Positions 8,848 through 34,456 of a DNA stretch of 64,000 bases are shown piece after piece. Numbering within the stretch: position 1 is the stretch's first letter; each line of letters starts with the position of its first letter. This DNA comes from Escherichia coli (GTDB taxonomy: Bacteria; Pseudomonadota; Gammaproteobacteria; Enterobacterales; Enterobacteriaceae), in assembly GCF_050320075.1 (NCBI RefSeq), contig NZ_CP190018.1. One strand, given 5' to 3'. The notes under the pieces are model-generated. The model was not told the DNA's origin. It did no database searches and was given only the letters and a program-made list of their open reading frames with translations. A program made the translations under genes and the position numbers.

Positions 8848-8924
8848 TGGCGTGGCATGCAGGATTCGAACCTGCGACCAACCGCTTAGAAGGCGGTTGC
8901 TCTGTCCAACTGAGCTAATGCCAC
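8848..8924 (-). tRNA. tRNA-Arg (anticodon UCU, reads AGA), phage-borne
   Basis: Hand-folded cloverleaf: 7-bp acceptor stem GTGGCAT/ATGCCAC, D-stem GCTC/GAGC, anticodon stem ACCGC/GCGGT with loop CUUCUAA, T-arm GCAGG-TTCGAAT-CCTGC, encoded 3' CCA. Confidence 0.9.
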
Positions 8925-28431: not shown

Positions 28432-31275
28432 ATGACGGTCTCAACCGAAGTTGACCACAACGAATACACAGGTAACGGCGTTACGACATCGTTTCCGTAT
28501 ACTTTTCGAATTTTCAGAAAATCAGACCTGGTTGTTCAGGTGTCTGACCTGAACGGGAACGTAACAGAATTGGTTCTGGATACCGGTTATACGGTAACTG
28601 GGGCGGGCACTTATAGTGGCGGTTCAGTGGTTCTGCCGTCTCCGCTTGCTGCTGGCTGGCGAATTACGATAGATCGTGTGCTTGATGTAGTGCAGGAGAC
28701 AGACCTCCGCAATCAGGGAAAGTTTTTCCCCGAAGTGCATGAAGATGCCTTTGACTACCTGACGATGCTGATCCAGCAATGTTTTGGGTGGTTCAGACGT
28801 GCATTGATGAAGCCCTCTCTGCTTGCAAAATATTACGATGCAAAGCAAAACAGAATTTCTAACCTTGCAGATCCATCACTTGAGCAGGACGCTGTAAATA
28901 ATCGCTCAATGCGTAATTATGTCGATGCTGCAATCGCCGGAGTTGTTGGTGGTTTTGGTTGGTTTATTCAGTATGGTTCTGGGGCAGTATATCGCACCTT
29001 CCAGGACAAGATGCGAGATGAAATAAATGTTCATGATTATGGTGCTATAGGTGATGGAAATTATCACCCGCTTTCTGAACGTTATTCATCGTTGGCTGCT
29101 GCGCAGCAACAATATCCATTTGCTACTTCCCTTGGTCAGTCTATTGACTGGGCTGCAATACAGGCAGCGATCAATGCCTCACAAGGCAGAAAGGTAAAAT
29201 TATTAGCAAAAACATACATTTCTACTGATGGATTCACTGGCGTTGATGGTCTTTGTTTAATTGGTGAAGGTGCTACCCCTTTTTACCTTAACTTTCAGGA
29301 CATTCCATACACCAACAATGGTGGTACTGACATTCTTTTCTATGGTACAGGCCAAAAGAACAGAAGCATTTATGGTATTTCGGATATGCAGCCATCCGGT
29401 GGTGTGAGGACAGATCCTGATTTAGGCGTGACTCATGCATTAACCAATATGACGAATGGAGACGCCAGCACTTCGGCGGCTGCAACCCCTCGAGCAGTAA
29501 GCGCTGGCTTATACCTTGAGCATTGCAAAGGCTGGCAAATTGAGGGAATCCGATTTGCTCCATATTTTAACGGGGTCGAATCATATACAGACCAGACTAA
29601 CTTAGGGCTGGCTGATGAATGGGATATCGGAATTCTCATCAATAGTTCTTATGATGGTGTAATGCGCGATGTTCGCGCGGTTGGGCACTGGCGAGTTGCT
29701 GGCCTGGCTGTGTTTGCAGGCGAAAATCCTTTCAACACAGGCGCGTCATCTTCATGTGAACGAAACAGATTTTTTTCCTGTCAGTTTAATGGAAAGTCTG
29801 GCGTTCTTATTCGCGGCGGGGATGCCTACCGGTGTACAGCAGTAACAGCTGACACTGTCGAAATTCCATGGCACGATTCAAACCCGTTCCGGCATACCGG
29901 TGGGGTATTTCTTGGGGCCTTTGGTGGCGCAACCTCTGCAAGCTATACCTATACCAGCGCAACGGTTACCGGTGATAAGCTGACGCTCCACGGAGTAAGC
30001 CCTAACCCTTTATCGAATGGTATGACAACATCTTCAGGGGTGTATACCGGTAGAAGTTATGGGTTCCAGGGTACGCAATTCTTTGGTTGTTACTTTGGCG
30101 GCCTTGAGCATCAGACTAACCGAGTGGCTACAGACCCGGCGCTTACCTCACCATTCCCTACGTCGTCAAAACCTGTCGAAATTTCAGGTGTTCCGGCAGG
30201 AAATATCAGGTTCTATGGTTGTACGCACATGACCCGGGAAGACTGTGTGTGGATGATCCATAACGCCTCAAATATCTACGACTTCGGAGGCTATTTTGAG
30301 GCCAAGCGAGCGATCACTGCTACTGGCGGCGGCTCGCGCATGGTAGCCATCGGTAATTGGCCTGATTACACCCCGACTGCAGAATCACCATATCCGTTTG
30401 GTACGGTCAGTAACATAAATATGTTCGGTTCGCAGGCTCTTAATTTCGTTGATATGTACCCTGTAGTTGCCCGTTCTACAGGTGTAACGCGCTTTACCTC
30501 CGGGATGTGGGATTGTAAGACCCTCTATAGCTCCGAGGCATTTCAGGATCTTGCTGACACCAACAACTATGTAATAAAGGGTTTACGAAACGAAAGCATA
30601 AGGTTCGAGGACGGAGCCGGCGGCCATCTTATGACCATGCAGAATATTGGCAATCTCCTGCTTGGTAAGCGCGCCAGATTTAACACCTCAACAGAGGATC
30701 GTTATCAGTTCTATCGACTCGATGGAACAACCATTTTCTTATCCCTCGATGGCACGATGTCCACGCCAGTAATGACTCTGGATGGAAACTTTGTCCCTGC
30801 AGTTGCCAATACAAGGTTGGTCGGAACTGCGGCCAAGCCCTTCTCGGGAGGTAATACCCAGACAGCTTATAACATCACTTCTGACCGGAACTACAAAACT
30901 GACTTTGGTGAAATTCCTGACGCCGTTCTGGATGCATGGGAATTGGTGCAGTATTCACAATATAAACTCAGGGATGCAGTTGCGTTGAAGGGGGAAGGCG
31001 CCAGATTACATGTCGGTGTTGTTGCACAGCAGGTGAAAGAGGCATTTGAATCAGTAGGGGTCGATCCTTTTGCATATGGCGTACTGTGCTACGACGAATG
31101 GTCTGGTCAGGAAGAAGTTATTGAGGACGGTGTCATTACGCAGCAAAAAGTGGAAGCAGGGAAGCGTTACAGTGTGCGCTACGAAGAGGCATATGCAATA
31201 GAGTCCGCCTTGCTTCGGAGAACTCATACCAGATTGGAGCAGCGCTTATCTTCTCTTGAAGAAAAATCAAAATAG
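28432..31275 (+). CDS. Tailspike/tail fibre protein with C-terminal intramolecular chaperone (peptidase S74-like) domain
   Basis: 947 aa; GGAG RBS; N-terminal virion-binding-like region; C-terminal region containing SDRNYK and GVVAQQVKEAFESVG resembles autocleaving chaperone domains. Confidence 0.7.
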   Translation: MTVSTEVDHNEYTGNGVTTSFPYTFRIFRKSDLVVQVSDLNGNVTELVLDTGYTVTGAGTYSGGSVVLPSPLAAGWRITIDRVLDVVQETDLRNQGKFFPEVHEDAFDYLTMLIQQCFGWFRRALMKPSLLAKYYDAKQNRISNLADPSLEQDAVNNRSMRNYVDAAIAGVVGGFGWFIQYGSGAVYRTFQDKMRDEINVHDYGAIGDGNYHPLSERYSSLAAAQQQYPFATSLGQSIDWAAIQAAINASQGRKVKLLAKTYISTDGFTGVDGLCLIGEGATPFYLNFQDIPYTNNGGTDILFYGTGQKNRSIYGISDMQPSGGVRTDPDLGVTHALTNMTNGDASTSAAATPRAVSAGLYLEHCKGWQIEGIRFAPYFNGVESYTDQTNLGLADEWDIGILINSSYDGVMRDVRAVGHWRVAGLAVFAGENPFNTGASSSCERNRFFSCQFNGKSGVLIRGGDAYRCTAVTADTVEIPWHDSNPFRHTGGVFLGAFGGATSASYTYTSATVTGDKLTLHGVSPNPLSNGMTTSSGVYTGRSYGFQGTQFFGCYFGGLEHQTNRVATDPALTSPFPTSSKPVEISGVPAGNIRFYGCTHMTREDCVWMIHNASNIYDFGGYFEAKRAITATGGGSRMVAIGNWPDYTPTAESPYPFGTVSNINMFGSQALNFVDMYPVVARSTGVTRFTSGMWDCKTLYSSEAFQDLADTNNYVIKGLRNESIRFEDGAGGHLMTMQNIGNLLLGKRARFNTSTEDRYQFYRLDGTTIFLSLDGTMSTPVMTLDGNFVPAVANTRLVGTAAKPFSGGNTQTAYNITSDRNYKTDFGEIPDAVLDAWELVQYSQYKLRDAVALKGEGARLHVGVVAQQVKEAFESVGVDPFAYGVLCYDEWSGQEEVIEDGVITQQKVEAGKRYSVRYEEAYAIESALLRRTHTRLEQRLSSLEEKSK

Positions 31276-31366
31276 GGGATGGTAATAATTATCCGTATAT
31301 GGTTTATTGTGTATGATGAACTCACCAACTAAGGGGGTTCTTTATGCACAATAAACGGTGGTCATC

Positions 31367-31771
31367 ATGTCGCACTCGTTAACTACGGAGTCGCTAAATC
31401 AGGGGCTTAGCCTGAGCGCGCTGGTTTCCGTATTGGCAGGTGTGCCGCCAGAAGTGGCTTTAGGGGCGCTGGCCGGTGCGGTAATTTTTGTTACCTCTGC
31501 GGTCGAGTACCCCATAAAGCGGCGTTTACTTCTGGCGTTCCTCAGCTTCTTCTGCGGCCTTCTTTTTTATAAACCAGCAGCATCAATTCTTATCGGCATC
31601 GCCAGCCTGATCCCTACTATCACGCAGGACTCTTTTGAAAAAGGGATTGTTTTCTCTGCTGGCGCATTCGTGTCAGCAATTGTTGCTGTGCGTATTGGTA
31701 TATGGCTCTACCACCGTTCCGATAATCCACGCGAGTTAATTCCGGGGAGAAAAGACGATGGTAACGCATGA
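31367..31771 (+). CDS. Holin-like membrane protein
   Basis: About 135 aa, several hydrophobic helices, first gene of the lysis cassette. Confidence 0.45.
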   Translation: MSHSLTTESLNQGLSLSALVSVLAGVPPEVALGALAGAVIFVTSAVEYPIKRRLLLAFLSFFCGLLFYKPAASILIGIASLIPTITQDSFEKGIVFSAGAFVSAIVAVRIGIWLYHRSDNPRELIPGRKDDGNA

Positions 31772-32066
31772 GTTTTTTTTGCTTATCACCAATGCAGTTA
31801 TTTGTACTGGCATAGCAATTCGCGTTGTCACATTCCGGCGTAACGGATCTCAATATCGAAGATTGGGGGGATGGCTTGCTTATTTCCTGATTGTCGCTGC
31901 GGCAAGTATTCCTGTTCGTGTCGTCTATGCAATCTGGTTACGCACGCCAATGGCTGTGGATTTATCCGAGGTCATTATCAATGCTGTCATGCTTGCTGCG
32001 GTTATTAAAACGCGCGGTAACGTCGTTCAGATTTTCAAAATAACGAGGTCTAAACATGGAGATTAA
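31758..32066 (+). CDS. Second small membrane protein (holin/antiholin-like)
   Basis: 102 aa, 2-3 hydrophobic helices, overlaps its neighbours. Confidence 0.4.
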
Positions 32067-32685
32067 ACAATTCCAGCGAGCTGCTGATATTAGTGAGGCG
32101 CTGACCGCCCGATGGTTCTCGCATATAACTTCTGCGATGAAAGAGTTTGGTATTAGCAAAGCAGAAGATCAGGCTATGTTTATTGCTCAGGTCGGGCATG
32201 AGTCTGGTGGCTTCACCAGGTTGCAGGAGAATTTCAATTACAGCGTCACCGGACTGGCTAACTTCGTTCGTGCCGGTCGTCTCACTCAGGGACAGGCCAA
32301 CGCACTGGGTCGCCGTGCTGGTGAACCGCCATTACCACTCGAGCGCCAGCGCGCGATCGCAAATCTGGTGTACAGCAAACGCATGGGTAACAATGCTCCT
32401 GGCGATGGATGGAACTACCGTGGGCGCGGACTTATCCAGATTACCGGTTTGAATAACTATCGTGACTGTGGAAACGGCCTTAATGCTGACCTGCTGGAGA
32501 GTCCTGAACTGCTGGCGCAGGACGAATACGCGGCTCGTAGCGCGGCGTGGTTCTTCTCCAGCAAAGGCTGCATGAAGTATACCGGAGATATTGCACGTGT
32601 AACTCTGATTATCAATGGTGGCCGGAACGGCATCGACGACCGGCGCGCGCGGTACATCACTGCCAGTAAGGTGCTGGCTGTATGA
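32056..32685 (+). CDS. Endolysin, glycoside hydrolase family 19 (chitinase-like lysozyme)
   Basis: 209 aa; [12 protein letters not shown] and [13 protein letters not shown] segments resemble the GH19 catalytic region; GAGG RBS. Confidence 0.7.
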
Positions 32686-33164
32686 TCTTGGCATTCGCAA
32701 AAGCATACTGGAAACAGTTGGTTATCATGGCGATGATTGCTGTTCTGGTCATATCAGGAGTTGTAGTCTGGAATGCACACGGCAGTCGTCAGTACGATGC
32801 CGGGTATGCGCAGGCGGAAGAAGACCGCAAAGACGAAGAAGACAAATTTCGTCAGTACTACGAACAGGAGAAAGTGACCAATGAACGTGAAGCGCAGCAG
32901 AGGATCGATCAGGCGCGCAGTGATGCTCTTGATGCTGCCGCTCGCGCTGGCAGGTTGCAGCAACAGCTCGTTGCCATCCGTGAGCAGCTCAGGCAGTATA
33001 ACGCCATTGTCGGCGCTGGGACGTCAGCCGCAGACACCGGAGTTTTGCTTGCCGACGTGCTCAGCAAATCTCTCGAGAGAAACAGACAACTGGCAGAGTA
33101 TGCTGACCGGGCAGCCGAAGCAGGAAGAGTCTGCGAAAAACAGTATGACACCCTGACCAGATAG
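32682..33164 (+). CDS. Rz-like inner-membrane spanin (i-spanin)
   Basis: 160 aa; N-terminal TM helix then coiled coil; start overlaps the endolysin stop. Confidence 0.6.
32923..33156 (+). CDS. Rz1-like outer-membrane lipoprotein spanin (o-spanin), embedded in Rz in the +1 frame
   Basis: [12 protein letters not shown] lipobox followed by a Pro/Ser-rich short protein, wholly inside the Rz gene. Confidence 0.6.
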   Translation: MLLMLPLALAGCSNSSLPSVSSSGSITPLSALGRQPQTPEFCLPTCSANLSRETDNWQSMLTGQPKQEESAKNSMTP

Positions 33165-33314
33165 CATGGCATTTTCATGGCACTGATTTCCTGTGACGGT
33201 ATATAAAACGGTACGAGGAAAATTTGGTTTTGGAAAAGTGTTATCACTCAATTGGTTATGGTGTCCGTAAATAATTGAGTGGGAATGATTTTGATCCCTG
33301 CACTATGAATGAAC

Positions 33315-33345
33315 AAAACCCTCTGTTACTACAGAGGGTTTTTTA
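33315..33345. terminator. Bidirectional rho-independent terminator (host yfgI 3' end; limit of prophage transcription)
   Basis: CCCTCTGT-TACT-ACAGAGGG flanked by A-run and T-run. Confidence 0.7.
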
Positions 33346-33382
33346 TCTTCAAGAATTATAGGCTTGAAGTTACTTACATCGA

Positions 33383-33922
33383 TTAATTAAACCAGCTGTC
33401 CGATTTGTTCTCTTCTGCTTTGCCCACGCTTTTCATCAGATCGCGACCGCCCTCAGTCATATTCCTGTTTGCGTCAGCTTCAGATTGCACCACATCGGTT
33501 TGCGCAGCTTTGTGCTTCAGTTCCTGATCGATAAATTCGTTTTCTCGCTTAACGCGGGCTTCTTCTTTCGCCAGCGCCAGTTTTTGTTTCTGAATCTCTA
33601 AGCTGCGTAGCTCATCTTCATAACTTTGATCGCGTTTTTTGTCCGCAGTGGCTTCGGCGTCCAGTTTATCCTGACGAGCTTTCTTATTTGCCGCTGCCGT
33701 TGCCGCTCTTTTGTTAGCGGCGGCCTGGGCGTTTGCGCGACGTTGCTTCTCTTGCTGGATTTCCCTGTTGCGCTCCGCGACCCATTCGTCATGCTGCCTT
33801 TGCTCTTCATTTTTACCTTGCTGTTCCGCTTCTGCGACAGCAGAGAGTTGATCCTGCAATGATGAGGCGATAGCCGGATAGCTTAAGGAGGTTAAGATGG
33901 CGCAAAGAAAAACTTTCTTCAT
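33383..33922 (-). CDS. yfgI: YfgI, secreted protein
   Basis: 179 aa with signal peptide and coiled-coil; matches E. coli YfgI in size and context. Confidence 0.75.
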   Translation of the reverse strand: MKKVFLCAILTSLSYPAIASSLQDQLSAVAEAEQQGKNEEQRQHDEWVAERNREIQQEKQRRANAQAAANKRAATAAANKKARQDKLDAEATADKKRDQSYEDELRSLEIQKQKLALAKEEARVKRENEFIDQELKHKAAQTDVVQSEADANRNMTEGGRDLMKSVGKAEENKSDSWFN

Positions 33923-33937
33923 GACTCCTCCTGATCA

Positions 33938-34456
33938 TTAGCTCTTTTCAGGACATTTCGTATTTGGCTGAATACGCGTTTCGTTATACGTCGTGGTAAT
34001 AACAACGGCTAAACCTGTCGTAAACTGGCACTCTTTACCCACCTGGGTAGAGGTATACACTTTGGTGCCTTCCTTATACGTTAGAGAAACACCTTCCACT
34101 AAGGTTTTATCATTCACCATAGAACCCGCTGCCGCGCCAACAGCTCCGCCGCCAACTGCACCTGCCGTCGTTCCGGAATTGCTGCCAGACCCCACGTTGT
34201 GGCCGATTACACCGCCAGCGACTGCACCAATAAGCGCGCCGAAGGCTTGTGCGTTCCGTTTATTTTGGGAGTTGTCTACGGCAACTTTTGCGGGAAGAAT
34301 GGAAATAATATTAACGGTTTTAGTTTCTTGTTTGGTATTCAGTTGATCGGTTTGATAAACATCGGCGGCATGATCATCAGCATTTGACTGGCATCCTGCC
34401 AGAGTGAATGACGCTAACATTGCCACAGGCAGAAGACATTTTTTAAATTTCATCAC
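33938..34456 (-). CDS. yfgH: YfgH, glycine-zipper outer-membrane lipoprotein
   Basis: 172 aa; lipobox LAGC; Gly-rich GAVAGGVIGHNVGSG segment. Confidence 0.75.
   Translation of the reverse strand: MMKFKKCLLPVAMLASFTLAGCQSNADDHAADVYQTDQLNTKQETKTVNIISILPAKVAVDNSQNKRNAQAFGALIGAVAGGVIGHNVGSGSNSGTTAGAVGGGAVGAAAGSMVNDKTLVEGVSLTYKEGTKVYTSTQVGKECQFTTGLAVVITTTYNETRIQPNTKCPEKS

Follow-up and report, generated by a model that had tools for sequence, protein, structure and literature searches.

Five overlapping plus-strand genes lie at positions 31367-33164 of a 64,000-nucleotide stretch of Escherichia coli DNA (the window; NZ_CP190018.1), and these coordinates agree to the base with those of an earlier sequence-only reading. 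They encode two membrane proteins, here called mp1 and mp2, a GH19 endolysin, an Rz-like spanin, and, nested within the Rz gene, an Rz1-like spanin (Table 1). Neighboring genes overlap by 14 nt (mp1/mp2), 11 nt (mp2/endolysin start), and 4 nt (endolysin/Rz). All five proteins match PHROGs of the "lysis" category with E values of 1e-34 or lower, which, along with annotated phage homologues, bears out the proposal of the sequence-only reading that this is a lysis cassette. NCBIfam models gave no match to any of the five proteins.

Table 1. Features of the lysis region (positions in the window)
Feature	Position	Strand	Basis
Leader RNA hairpin, ~23 bp (15 + 6 + 2)	31302..31356	+	Folding, covariance model
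Mini-ORF MHNKRWSSCRTR, 12 codons	31344..31382	+	Strong SD 6 nt upstream
mp1, membrane protein, 134 aa	31367..31771	+	Pfam Phage_holin_8 (PF16931)
mp2, predicted holin, 102 aa	31758..32066	+	Pfam Phage_holin_3_7 (PF05449, formerly DUF754)
GH19 endolysin, 209 aa, soluble, without signal or SAR	32056..32685	+	PF00182, 4OK7
Rz i-spanin, DUF2514, 160 aa	32682..33164	+	PF10721, phrog_312
Rz1 o-spanin lipoprotein, 91 aa	32881..33156	+	phrog_11621, lipobox, nested in Rz
attR core ATTGAGTGGGAATGATT, right prophage end	33274..33290	+	Window sequence, attP-region alignment with phages
Rho-independent terminator hairpin at the end of the lysis operon	33315..33342	+	Terminator scan

The presence of two consecutive membrane proteins ahead of the endolysin, as claimed earlier, was confirmed by hydropathy and profile analysis, with three to four hydrophobic segments in mp1 and three in mp2. 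mp1 matches its Pfam family with an E value of 3.5e-12 (47 bits; cut-off, 26.4) and phrog_198, labeled "holin," with 5.8e-40. Hydropathy places its segments at about residues 13-45, 54-85, and 94-115, followed by a charged C-terminal tail, while the AlphaFold model has helices at 7-24, 28-44, 50-66, 68-81, and 92-119, and the annotation of phage phiV10 gives three transmembrane (TM) helices for the counterpart. The helix count of mp1 is therefore method dependent, from 3 to 5, and AlphaFold confidence is moderate for both proteins (mean pLDDT of 72 for mp1 and 63 for mp2). Proteins of the mp1 type are usually annotated as "antiholin" or "membrane protein."

mp2 matches its Pfam family with an E value of 5.2e-26 (90.9 bits; cut-off, 25.4) and belongs with phrog_217, "holin." Its TM segments lie at about residues 5-25, 36-59, and 68-83 by hydropathy, with AlphaFold helices at 2-25, 35-61, 69-84, and 89-100, and it has a basic loop at 26-35 (RRxxxxxxRR) as well as a basic C terminus. 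The predicted topology is class I, with three TM helices and the N terminus out and the C terminus in. Profile, three helices, basic tail, and endolysin adjacency are together those of a class I holin of the PF05449 family. Paralogy of mp1 and mp2 was considered and rejected, as BLASTP (E value of 0.99) and hhalign (probability of 1.8%) detect no relation between them.

The assignment of the third gene to GH19 endolysins holds, with a PF00182 score of 36.0 bits (cut-off, 25.5) and an E value of 3e-113 over residues 1-208 against the endolysin structure of Salmonella phage SPN1S, PDB 4OK7; the match to phrog_181 has an E value of 5.6e-89. The SPN1S enzyme has the same GH19 fold and the same length, aligns end to end, and differs from the window endolysin by scattered substitutions only. 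PaGH19Lys (PDB 9EOI; E value of 8.6e-32), an experimentally established muramidase, shares the fold and the catalytic Glu pair: residues H48, E49, and E58 of the window protein match active-site residues H50, E51, and E60, so that a His stands directly before a Glu-x8-Glu pair. For PaGH19Lys, both the catalytic residues and the muramidase activity have been described (PMC12329726), and muralytic activity is reported for the SPN1S enzyme, epsilon15 LysSA05, and PaGH19Lys (PMC12391199 and PMC12329726). By sequence, the window endolysin is thus a GH19 muramidase-type enzyme of putative activity. It has no hydrophobic segment; the maximum 19-residue Kyte-Doolittle mean is 0.42, the N terminus is hydrophilic, and hydropathy reveals no N-terminal signal-anchor-release (SAR) domain.

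Rz matches PF10721 (E value of 3.5e-42) and phrog_312, "Rz-like spanin" (3.2e-57). It has one N-terminal TM anchor, at about residues 12-30 within hydrophobic residues 1-35, a single Cys at 151, and a periplasmic part that is proline free, with 69% helix-favoring residues and a heptad bias. A single TM segment and a helical periplasmic domain in the last gene of the cassette are the hallmarks of an i-spanin. Rz1 lies wholly inside Rz in the +1 frame [(32881-32682) mod 3 = 1], just as the sequence-only reading had it, with its end 8 nt upstream of the Rz stop codon. It spans 0.41 L to 0.98 L of Rz, a geometry typical of embedded spanins (PMC6139136), and has an SD, AGGAG, 10 nt upstream. Its signal peptide ends in the lipobox LAGC, with Cys26 as the predicted lipidation residue. 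The residue at +2 is Ser (CSN) and not the Lol-avoidance Asp, as expected of an o-spanin, and would imply sorting to the outer membrane. The mature part, 66 aa, is rich in Ser and Pro and includes Cys56 and Cys60. The embedded "Bcep176" spanin family includes epsilon15, phiV10, TL-2011b, and SPN1S (PMC6139136).

The Rz/Rz1 label proposed earlier stands for the functional class and fails for kinship with lambda, as the i-spanin is of the DUF2514 and not the PF03245 family. The lambda families PF03245 and PF06085 are unmatched here, and Pfam searches at E values up to 0.1 identify Rz as DUF2514 and return no relevant family for Rz1. Rz and Rz1 are functional analogues of the lambda pair and not members of its families.

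Is the nested Rz1 frame a gene, or an alternative frame that happens to be open because stops are scarce in it? Length does not decide, as 11.5% of codon-shuffled Rz genes contain a +1 open reading frame (ORF) of 91 codons or more. The NCBI pipeline (PGAP) leaves the frame unannotated in both identical E. coli chromosomes described below, and Pfam and NCBIfam models do not match it. However, length plus an N-terminal lipobox arises in only 0.4% of codon shuffles, and the third frame of the Rz region averages 7.9 stops. The match to phrog_11621, "Rz-like spanin," has an E value of 3.6e-40. Among 88 related loci, representing 52 distinct sequences, the Rz1 ORF is intact with its start and lipobox in all 88, exact LAGC being kept in 86, and relatives with 34 to 51% Rz identity still retain it. 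Nucleotide diversity is ~2.5-fold lower in the Rz/Rz1 overlap than in the nonoverlapping part of Rz. Control ORFs on the antisense strand (32332-32706, 32909-33247, and 31620-31853) are frequently broken by stops (in 14/85, 41/88, and 23/83 relatives) and were rejected as genes for lack of conservation. The conservation data effectively refute a chance frame, the probability of which we consider negligible, and on comparative sequence grounds nested Rz1 is a real gene.

This leaves a gap in annotation. Rz1 is annotated in phiV10 and epsilon15, while the E. coli records that are 100% identical over the region name only "putative holin," "phage holin family," "GH19," and "DUF2514." Among the other E. 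coli matches, four product names are likewise listed, with the o-spanin absent.

We compared the region with phage and chromosomal records. Its DNA has 100% nucleotide identity with two E. coli RefSeq chromosomes. The cassettes of phiV10 and TL-2011b are 88 to 90% identical to that of the window, and those of SPN1S and epsilon15 are 80 to 81% identical. Phage ZX5 aligns over 93% of the cassette region used as query, with 92.6% identity. The gene order in the phage records is that of the window: membrane protein, holin, endolysin, Rz-like, and Rz1-like. phiV10 (PhiV10p27-30a), TL-2011b, and epsilon15 (gp23-26 plus Rz1), of the genus Uetakevirus, share all five genes with the window, along with their order and overlaps, the nested Rz1, and the upstream hairpin, at 81 to 90% nucleotide identity. 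In these phages, as here, the cassette sits between the tail fiber region and attP or attR. The window differs in that the cassette directly follows the tail fiber gene after a 91-nt gap, whereas opposite-strand O-antigen-conversion genes intervene in phiV10 (oac), epsilon15 (genes 21 and 22), and SPN1S (gtrA). The prophage layout runs from guaA and the integrase through terminase, portal, capsid, tail fiber, and lysis genes to attR and yfgI. The att core, ATTGAGTGGGAATGATT, is that given for phiV10, epsilon15, and ZX5 (PMC9782041). An identity of 81 to 90% over the cassette, synteny, and the guaA att core place the prophage in the epsilon15-like genus Uetakevirus. The terminator hairpin is also annotated in phiV10 and epsilon15; in the integrated prophage, the copy found past the att core is that of the host. 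A scan of the window found no sigma-70 promoter for the lysis operon.

Very probably, the cassette is an undamaged lysis operon belonging to a complete ~39-kb epsilon15/phiV10-like prophage, which is integrated at the guaA 3' end. The early region of this prophage does contain a few short stretches annotated as pseudogene fragments, which could instead point to a decaying, nonfunctional remnant in a cryptic element. We judge this improbable, as none of the five lysis ORFs is shortened by comparison with phiV10 and epsilon15, and the prophage keeps its integrase, repressor, replication, terminase, portal, capsid, and tail genes and both att sites. In addition, its close relative ZX5 is spontaneously induced, at 10^7 PFU/mL (PMC9782041). 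All five genes are already annotated in phage records, and the spanins appear in a published list of embedded families (Kongari 2018); the cassette is therefore an ordinary, previously catalogued five-gene host-lysis module. It is textbook-style, with annotated homologues, catalogued spanins, and a crystallized endolysin, and brings no new biology. Its practical value is small and lies in the o-spanin annotation gap, the genetics of the holin pair, and a candidate regulatory leader.

The two membrane proteins were found to be inherited together. All of the phage lysis cassettes sampled have a PF16931 gene followed by a PF05449 gene. All four distant phages reached via mp2 carry the pair (lambdoid mEp390, Pseudomonas phi_D3, P2-like Ralstonia RsoM1USA, and N4-like Klebsiella Pylas), as do four of the six distinct contexts reached via mp1, with a fifth probable where the contig is cut. 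Such pairs occur with varied endolysins (GH19, GH108, and others) and varied spanins. Phage_holin_8 and Phage_holin_3_7 are thus a fixed two-gene module across unrelated phages, making the identity of the hole-forming partner a tractable genetic question. At one bacterial locus, a PF16931 protein without a PF05449 partner adjoins a signal-less M15 peptidase, which suggests that mp1-type proteins may be hole formers themselves and not pure inhibitors.

The searchable literature yielded no experiments on the mp1 and mp2 families or on DUF2514-type spanins, and for PF05449 no paper with experiments on any member; the two roles are thus assigned by analogy, through annotation. The "holin plus antiholin" of the sequence-only reading agrees with the current, putative annotation of such pairs by curators: the notes on Klebsiella phage Pylas read "Antiholin paired with adjacent holin" and "conserved holin," and Burkholderia phages KS5, KS14, and KL3 are given the same description (PMC3091744). 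Serratia ChiW was rejected as an experimental proxy for PF16931, being lambda-S-like. The most likely role of mp1 is that of an antiholin or co-holin modulating the timing of mp2; by analogy, we put an antiholin proper at an even chance. The conserved pairing is compatible with an antiholin yet not specific to one. A two-component holin, in which both proteins are needed or both are independent holins and neither is inhibitory, is a more doubtful but still serious reading. The pair is inherited as a unit in podo-, sipho-, and myovirus cassettes with unrelated endolysins and spanins, PHROGs and Pfam label both members "holin," and the Pylas notes predict three TM helices and an N-out/C-in topology for both. 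Moreover, the PF16931 protein is the only holin candidate beside the cytoplasmic M15 peptidase at the chromosomal locus. Strict co-occurrence would, however, be expected equally of a holin with a dedicated antiholin, as in P2 Y and LysA or P1 LydA and LydB, and the curators of Pylas and the Burkholderia phages picked "antiholin."

The pinholin option of the sequence-only reading is disfavored. Small multi-TM proteins placed before an endolysin could be pinholins that merely depolarize the membrane, as in phage 21. Pinholins serve membrane-tethered SAR endolysins, whereas the enzyme here lacks an N-terminal TM or SAR segment and is a soluble, globular two-module enzyme of the 4OK7 type. Being soluble and without a SAR segment, a folded 23-kDa endolysin would need large holes, and we hold a pinholin in either position to be very improbable. 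The "TM helix 39-54" described for the epsilon15 enzyme (PMC12391199) spans catalytic residues H48 and E49 in the globular fold and is not an N-terminal anchor.

The lambda S-R-Rz/Rz1 cassette, the paradigm for a holin, an endolysin, and embedded spanins, follows the same logic and gene order; it too embeds Rz1 in Rz at +1, has a three-helix holin of the class I type, and starts its holin message with an RNA stem-loop. There is no sequence homology, however, with a PF05449 holin in place of S, GH19 in place of a transglycosylase, and DUF2514 in place of PF03245. The candidate antiholin of the window is a separate gene, whereas that of lambda is a dual-start product, and the mature o-spanin has 66 aa and three Cys residues, versus 40 aa and one Cys in lambda. 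Pylas has the two Pfam families in an identical arrangement, immediately ahead of the endolysin gene; for KS5, KS14, and KL3, which are P2-like, the documented match is to the DUF754 holin family alone. In both cases, three TM helices, the N-out/C-in topology, and the roles are predicted, and the endolysins and spanin architectures differ from those here. P2 Y and LysA offer the concept of a holin with a separately encoded multi-TM antiholin, but homology was rejected (mp1 versus LysA, E value of 1.1; mp2 versus Y, no alignment), Y is in PF04550, and in P2 the endolysin gene lies between Y and LysA.

From homology and established phage-lysis knowledge, we infer the identities of holin and regulator, their topologies, and the timing of lysis. 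The five genes would be cotranscribed late in the lytic cycle and, given the overlaps between adjacent genes, translationally coupled. mp2, as a class-I-type holin, would build up in the inner membrane and form large holes at a set time, with mp1, its fixed genetic partner, tuning that time. The holes would let out the soluble cytoplasmic GH19 muramidase, which would cut MurNAc-GlcNAc bonds of the murein. Rz in the inner membrane and Rz1 in the outer membrane would form a periplasm-spanning complex that, once the murein is gone, would fuse or disrupt the outer membrane.

For the leader of the operon, per-sequence folding and covariance-model alignment were used in place of RNAalifold, which gave no consensus structure on MAFFT-aligned leaders because insertions and deletions in the apical stem throw the alignment out of register. 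The window leader folds into a hairpin (-38.3 kcal/mol; z = -5.5) that sequesters an SD, AAGGGGG (31331-31337), and the ATG of the mini-ORF. Its sequence is near-invariant among the window, phiV10, epsilon15, SPN1S, and a Klebsiella prophage, and 33 of 46 distinct leaders fold at z < -2. The covariance model matches once per locus, directly upstream of mp1, in 76 loci. In the resulting alignment, the paired share of cells is 87.7%, versus 33 to 57% with the partners slid, and 11 of the 23 hairpin pairs have changes on both sides. G.U combinations number 175 and A.C combinations 15, placing the structure on the sense RNA. Rfam had no match in 31000-33500 at E values up to 1. The hairpin is absent from distant phages carrying the same holin pair and is therefore lineage specific.

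The mini-ORF extends across the start codon of mp1 and is read in a different frame. A mini-ORF with SD and ATG is present in 44 of 52 distinct leaders; the peptide is not conserved in one leader subgroup, and the mini-ORF is missing in another, where a canonical AGGAG precedes mp1. A sigma-70 promoter was rejected as a conserved feature of the hairpin, since the -10 element is lost in leader variants that keep the hairpin; the phiV10 hairpin holds TTAACC-17-TATAAT, and promoter scoring is blank in the window and epsilon15. Hairpin and mini-ORF are a candidate lysis-timing control element. We tentatively propose that they could be a posttranscriptional switch of lysis timing, from an uncharacterized cis-regulatory RNA class attached to the two-component PF16931/PF05449 holin, although we think this less probable than its converse. 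Under such a switch, the class may be limited to epsilon15-like prophages and related ones in Klebsiella and Enterobacter, and RNase III cleavage or ribosome-driven unfolding of the hairpin would set the output of the two-protein holin module. The equivalent hairpin site in epsilon15 is annotated as putative "RNaseIII, mRNA processing."

The lysis cassette consists of five plus-strand genes lying exactly where the sequence-only reading had placed them (31367-33164), and PHROGs searches assign all five proteins to 'lysis' families. Successive genes overlap by 14, 11, and 4 nt, the pattern characteristic of an operon with translational coupling. The same five genes, nested Rz1 included, are annotated in the RefSeq records of phiV10 and epsilon15, and none of the five proteins has a model in NCBIfam. 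The earlier observation is confirmed, its interpretation is supported, and the cassette is an already known system.

Features of the cassette and its surroundings in the window
Feature	Position	Strand	Length	Basis or remark
Putative tRNA-Arg	~8848-8924	-		inside prophage, between terminase and portal genes; position from RefSeq annotation of NZ_CP123240, 1477634-1477710
Tail-fibre gene	28432-31275		947 aa	
Leader hairpin	31302-31356		23 bp	
Leader hairpin and mini-ORF	31302-31382			
mp1	31367-31771	+	134 aa	ORF list and raw sequence
mp2	31758-32066	+	102 aa	ORF list and raw sequence
Endolysin	32056-32685	+	209 aa	ORF list and raw sequence
Rz-like	32682-33164	+	160 aa	ORF list and raw sequence
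Rz1-like	32881-33156	+	91 aa	ORF list and raw sequence
attR core	33274-33290			window sequence
Bidirectional terminator hairpin	33315-33342			3' of attR core; copy also on phage, beside attP
yfgI, yfgH (host)	33383-34456	-		beyond terminator

Two E. coli chromosomes, NZ_CP123240 (YZLc1-3) and NZ_LR890536 (MSB1_8B), match the 1951-bp region at 100% identity, and a search of 5426 complete E. coli genomes found it at ≥80% coverage in 372. Among phages, all of the genus Uetakevirus, cassette identity is 88-90% to phiV10 and TL-2011b, 81% to epsilon15, and 80% to SPN1S. The attR core, ATTGAGTGGGAATGATT, is the att core reported for phiV10, epsilon15, and ZX5 (PMC9782041), and the YZLc1-3 prophage (~39 kb) runs from guaA and the integrase gene to the lysis genes and yfgI with a full morphogenesis gene set. 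Opposite-strand O-antigen-modification genes separate tail fibre and lysis genes in phiV10 (oac), epsilon15 (genes 21 and 22), and SPN1S (gtrA), whereas they are missing in the window, leaving a 91-nt gap. With no terminator in this gap (31276-31366), transcription of the tail-fibre gene may run on into the lysis genes.

The Rz1 ORF begins 199 nt downstream of the Rz start (199 mod 3 = 1) and its stop precedes that of Rz by 8 nt, so the entire gene is nested in the +1 frame. Rz, a DUF2514 protein by Pfam search, has a single N-terminal anchor in its hydropathy profile, while Rz1 matches phrog_11621 (E 3.6e-40) and has a signal peptide closing with the lipobox LAGC (Cys26, Ser at +2). By itself, the length of the nested ORF is not convincing evidence for a gene, since 11.5% of codon-shuffled Rz genes have a +1 ORF of ≥91 codons; adding an N-terminal lipobox reduces this to 0.4%. 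Conservation was assessed in 88 loci (52 distinct sequences) drawn from 80 IMG/VR contigs, from reference phages, and from the E. coli record with the identical region. The ORF is open, with start codon and lipobox, in 88/88, including siphoviruses at only 34-51% Rz identity that keep the core ...ALxxQPxxPxxCxPTCSxN.... The third frame averages 7.9 stops, nucleotide diversity is ~2.5 times lower in the overlap than in non-overlapping Rz, and three antisense ORFs of 77-124 codons, serving as negative controls, are broken in 14/85, 41/88, and 23/83 relatives. Judged by sequence comparison, this conservation is decisive that nested Rz1 exceeds chance, and the proposed embedded arrangement stands.

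Kongari et al. 2018 placed epsilon15, phiV10, TL-2011b, and the SPN1S group together in a family of embedded spanins that takes its name from Bcep176, and the placement of Rz1 here, spanning 0.41-0.98 of Rz length, is typical of embedded spanins in that survey (PMC6139136). With no PF03245 match in the Pfam search, the spanins are analogous to lambda Rz/Rz1 but unrelated to them in sequence. The E. coli RefSeq record with the identical region leaves Rz1 (L003, 21582-21857) unannotated, and product names in the E. coli genome matches cover only the other four genes.

The expected GH19 endolysin is borne out by an above-threshold match to PF00182 and by end-to-end alignment with 4OK7, the crystal structure of the SPN1S endolysin (E 3e-113). 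It also aligns with PaGH19Lys (9EOI), a demonstrated muramidase (PMC12329726), with H48, E49, and E58 corresponding to active-site H50, E51, and E60. The hydropathy profile contains zero hydrophobic segments (maximum 0.42), and a soluble endolysin without signal sequence requires a large-hole holin. The pinholin offered as an option by the sequence-only reading does not fit, since the pinholin/SAR-endolysin scheme is at odds with such an enzyme.

That two membrane proteins precede the endolysin is upheld by hydropathy, with 3-4 hydrophobic segments in mp1 and three in mp2. By Pfam search, mp1 is Phage_holin_8 (PF16931) and mp2 is Phage_holin_3_7 (PF05449; 90.9 bits); no experiment on either family was found in the literature. 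The three helices of mp2, its strongly basic first loop, and its basic tail imply an N-out/C-in topology of the class I holin type. In mp1, helix-break-helix pairs are followed by a long last helix and charged tail; the phiV10 annotators predicted three TM helices for its counterpart. No relationship between mp1 and mp2 as paralogues is detectable, and neither resembles P2 LysA or Y.

The mp1 family is small (56 clusters at 50% identity among 1.84 billion proteins). A PF05449 gene lies 3' of distant members (26-40% identity) in 4 of 6 distinct contexts, with a fifth probable on a cut contig, and their cassettes hold GH108 with lambda-type Rz, GH19 with DUF2570, or unassigned genes. Reciprocally, PF16931 genes lie directly 5' of all four distant mp2 homologues (lambdoid mEp390, Pseudomonas phi_D3, P2-like Ralstonia RsoM1USA, and N4-like Klebsiella Pylas). 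The pair is thus a mobile two-gene module. The upstream member is labelled 'antiholin' in the Pylas record notes and likewise by the curators of Burkholderia KS5, KS14, and KL3 (PMC3091744). Our leading assignment, at roughly even odds, is that mp2 may be the holin and mp1 the antiholin. Its main rival, a two-component holin formed by both, is possible at lower probability. At one chromosomal locus, a PF16931 protein without PF05449 partner stands beside a signal-less M15 peptidase, which hints that PF16931 proteins may make holes themselves. This unit (L098 3001-3754, GCA_005491205.1, CP028035.1; also L099), whose peptidase is a 129-aa Peptidase_M15_4, is divergent from a LysR regulator, adjoins an Rhs-repeat gene, and looks like a type-10-secretion-like holin/peptidase pair. 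At another bacterial locus (L091 3001-3695), the PF16931/PF05449 pair sits alone amid housekeeping-type genes (GAPDH, phosphoesterase, NUDIX, PAS-GGDEF-EAL), with no adjoining peptidoglycan hydrolase or spanin.

The ~70 nt 5' of the mp1 start are better conserved than the cassette genes and fold as a hairpin (-38.3 kcal/mol, z = -5.5). In its 3' arm, a strong SD, AAGGGGG (31331-31337), and the start codon of a 12-codon mini-ORF (ATG at 31344) are sequestered; the mini-ORF overlaps the start of mp1 and ends 13 nt inside that gene. Inner-stem sequences differ among leaders, yet 33 of 46 distinct ones have z < -2 with the same geometry, and a covariance model finds one hairpin per locus in 76 loci. 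In an alignment fitted to the structure itself, pairing holds in 87.7% of cells versus 33-57% for slid partners, both-side changes affect 11/23 pairs (reached by 2/500 shuffles), and 36 cells are changed on both sides versus 17.7 expected (0/500). Non-Watson-Crick cells are G.U in 175 cases versus A.C in 15, placing the hairpin on the sense RNA rather than in a DNA palindrome. The mini-ORF, present in 44/52 leaders without conservation of its peptide, is absent where mp1 carries its own AGGAG. Lambda S provides a precedent for a stem-loop governing holin translation (PMC3369941). We tentatively suggest hairpin and mini-ORF as a candidate lysis-timing switch for the co-inherited two-protein holin module. 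Rfam has no family for the hairpin, distant phages with the same holin pair lack it, and the epsilon15 record marks the site only as 'RNaseIII, mRNA processing' (putative). In phiV10, a near-consensus sigma-70 promoter, TTAACC-17-TATAAT (L001 2990-3018), lies within the 5' arm, its -10 element not conserved among other leader variants; a transcript starting there would be without the 5' arm, leaving the mini-ORF ribosome-binding site free.
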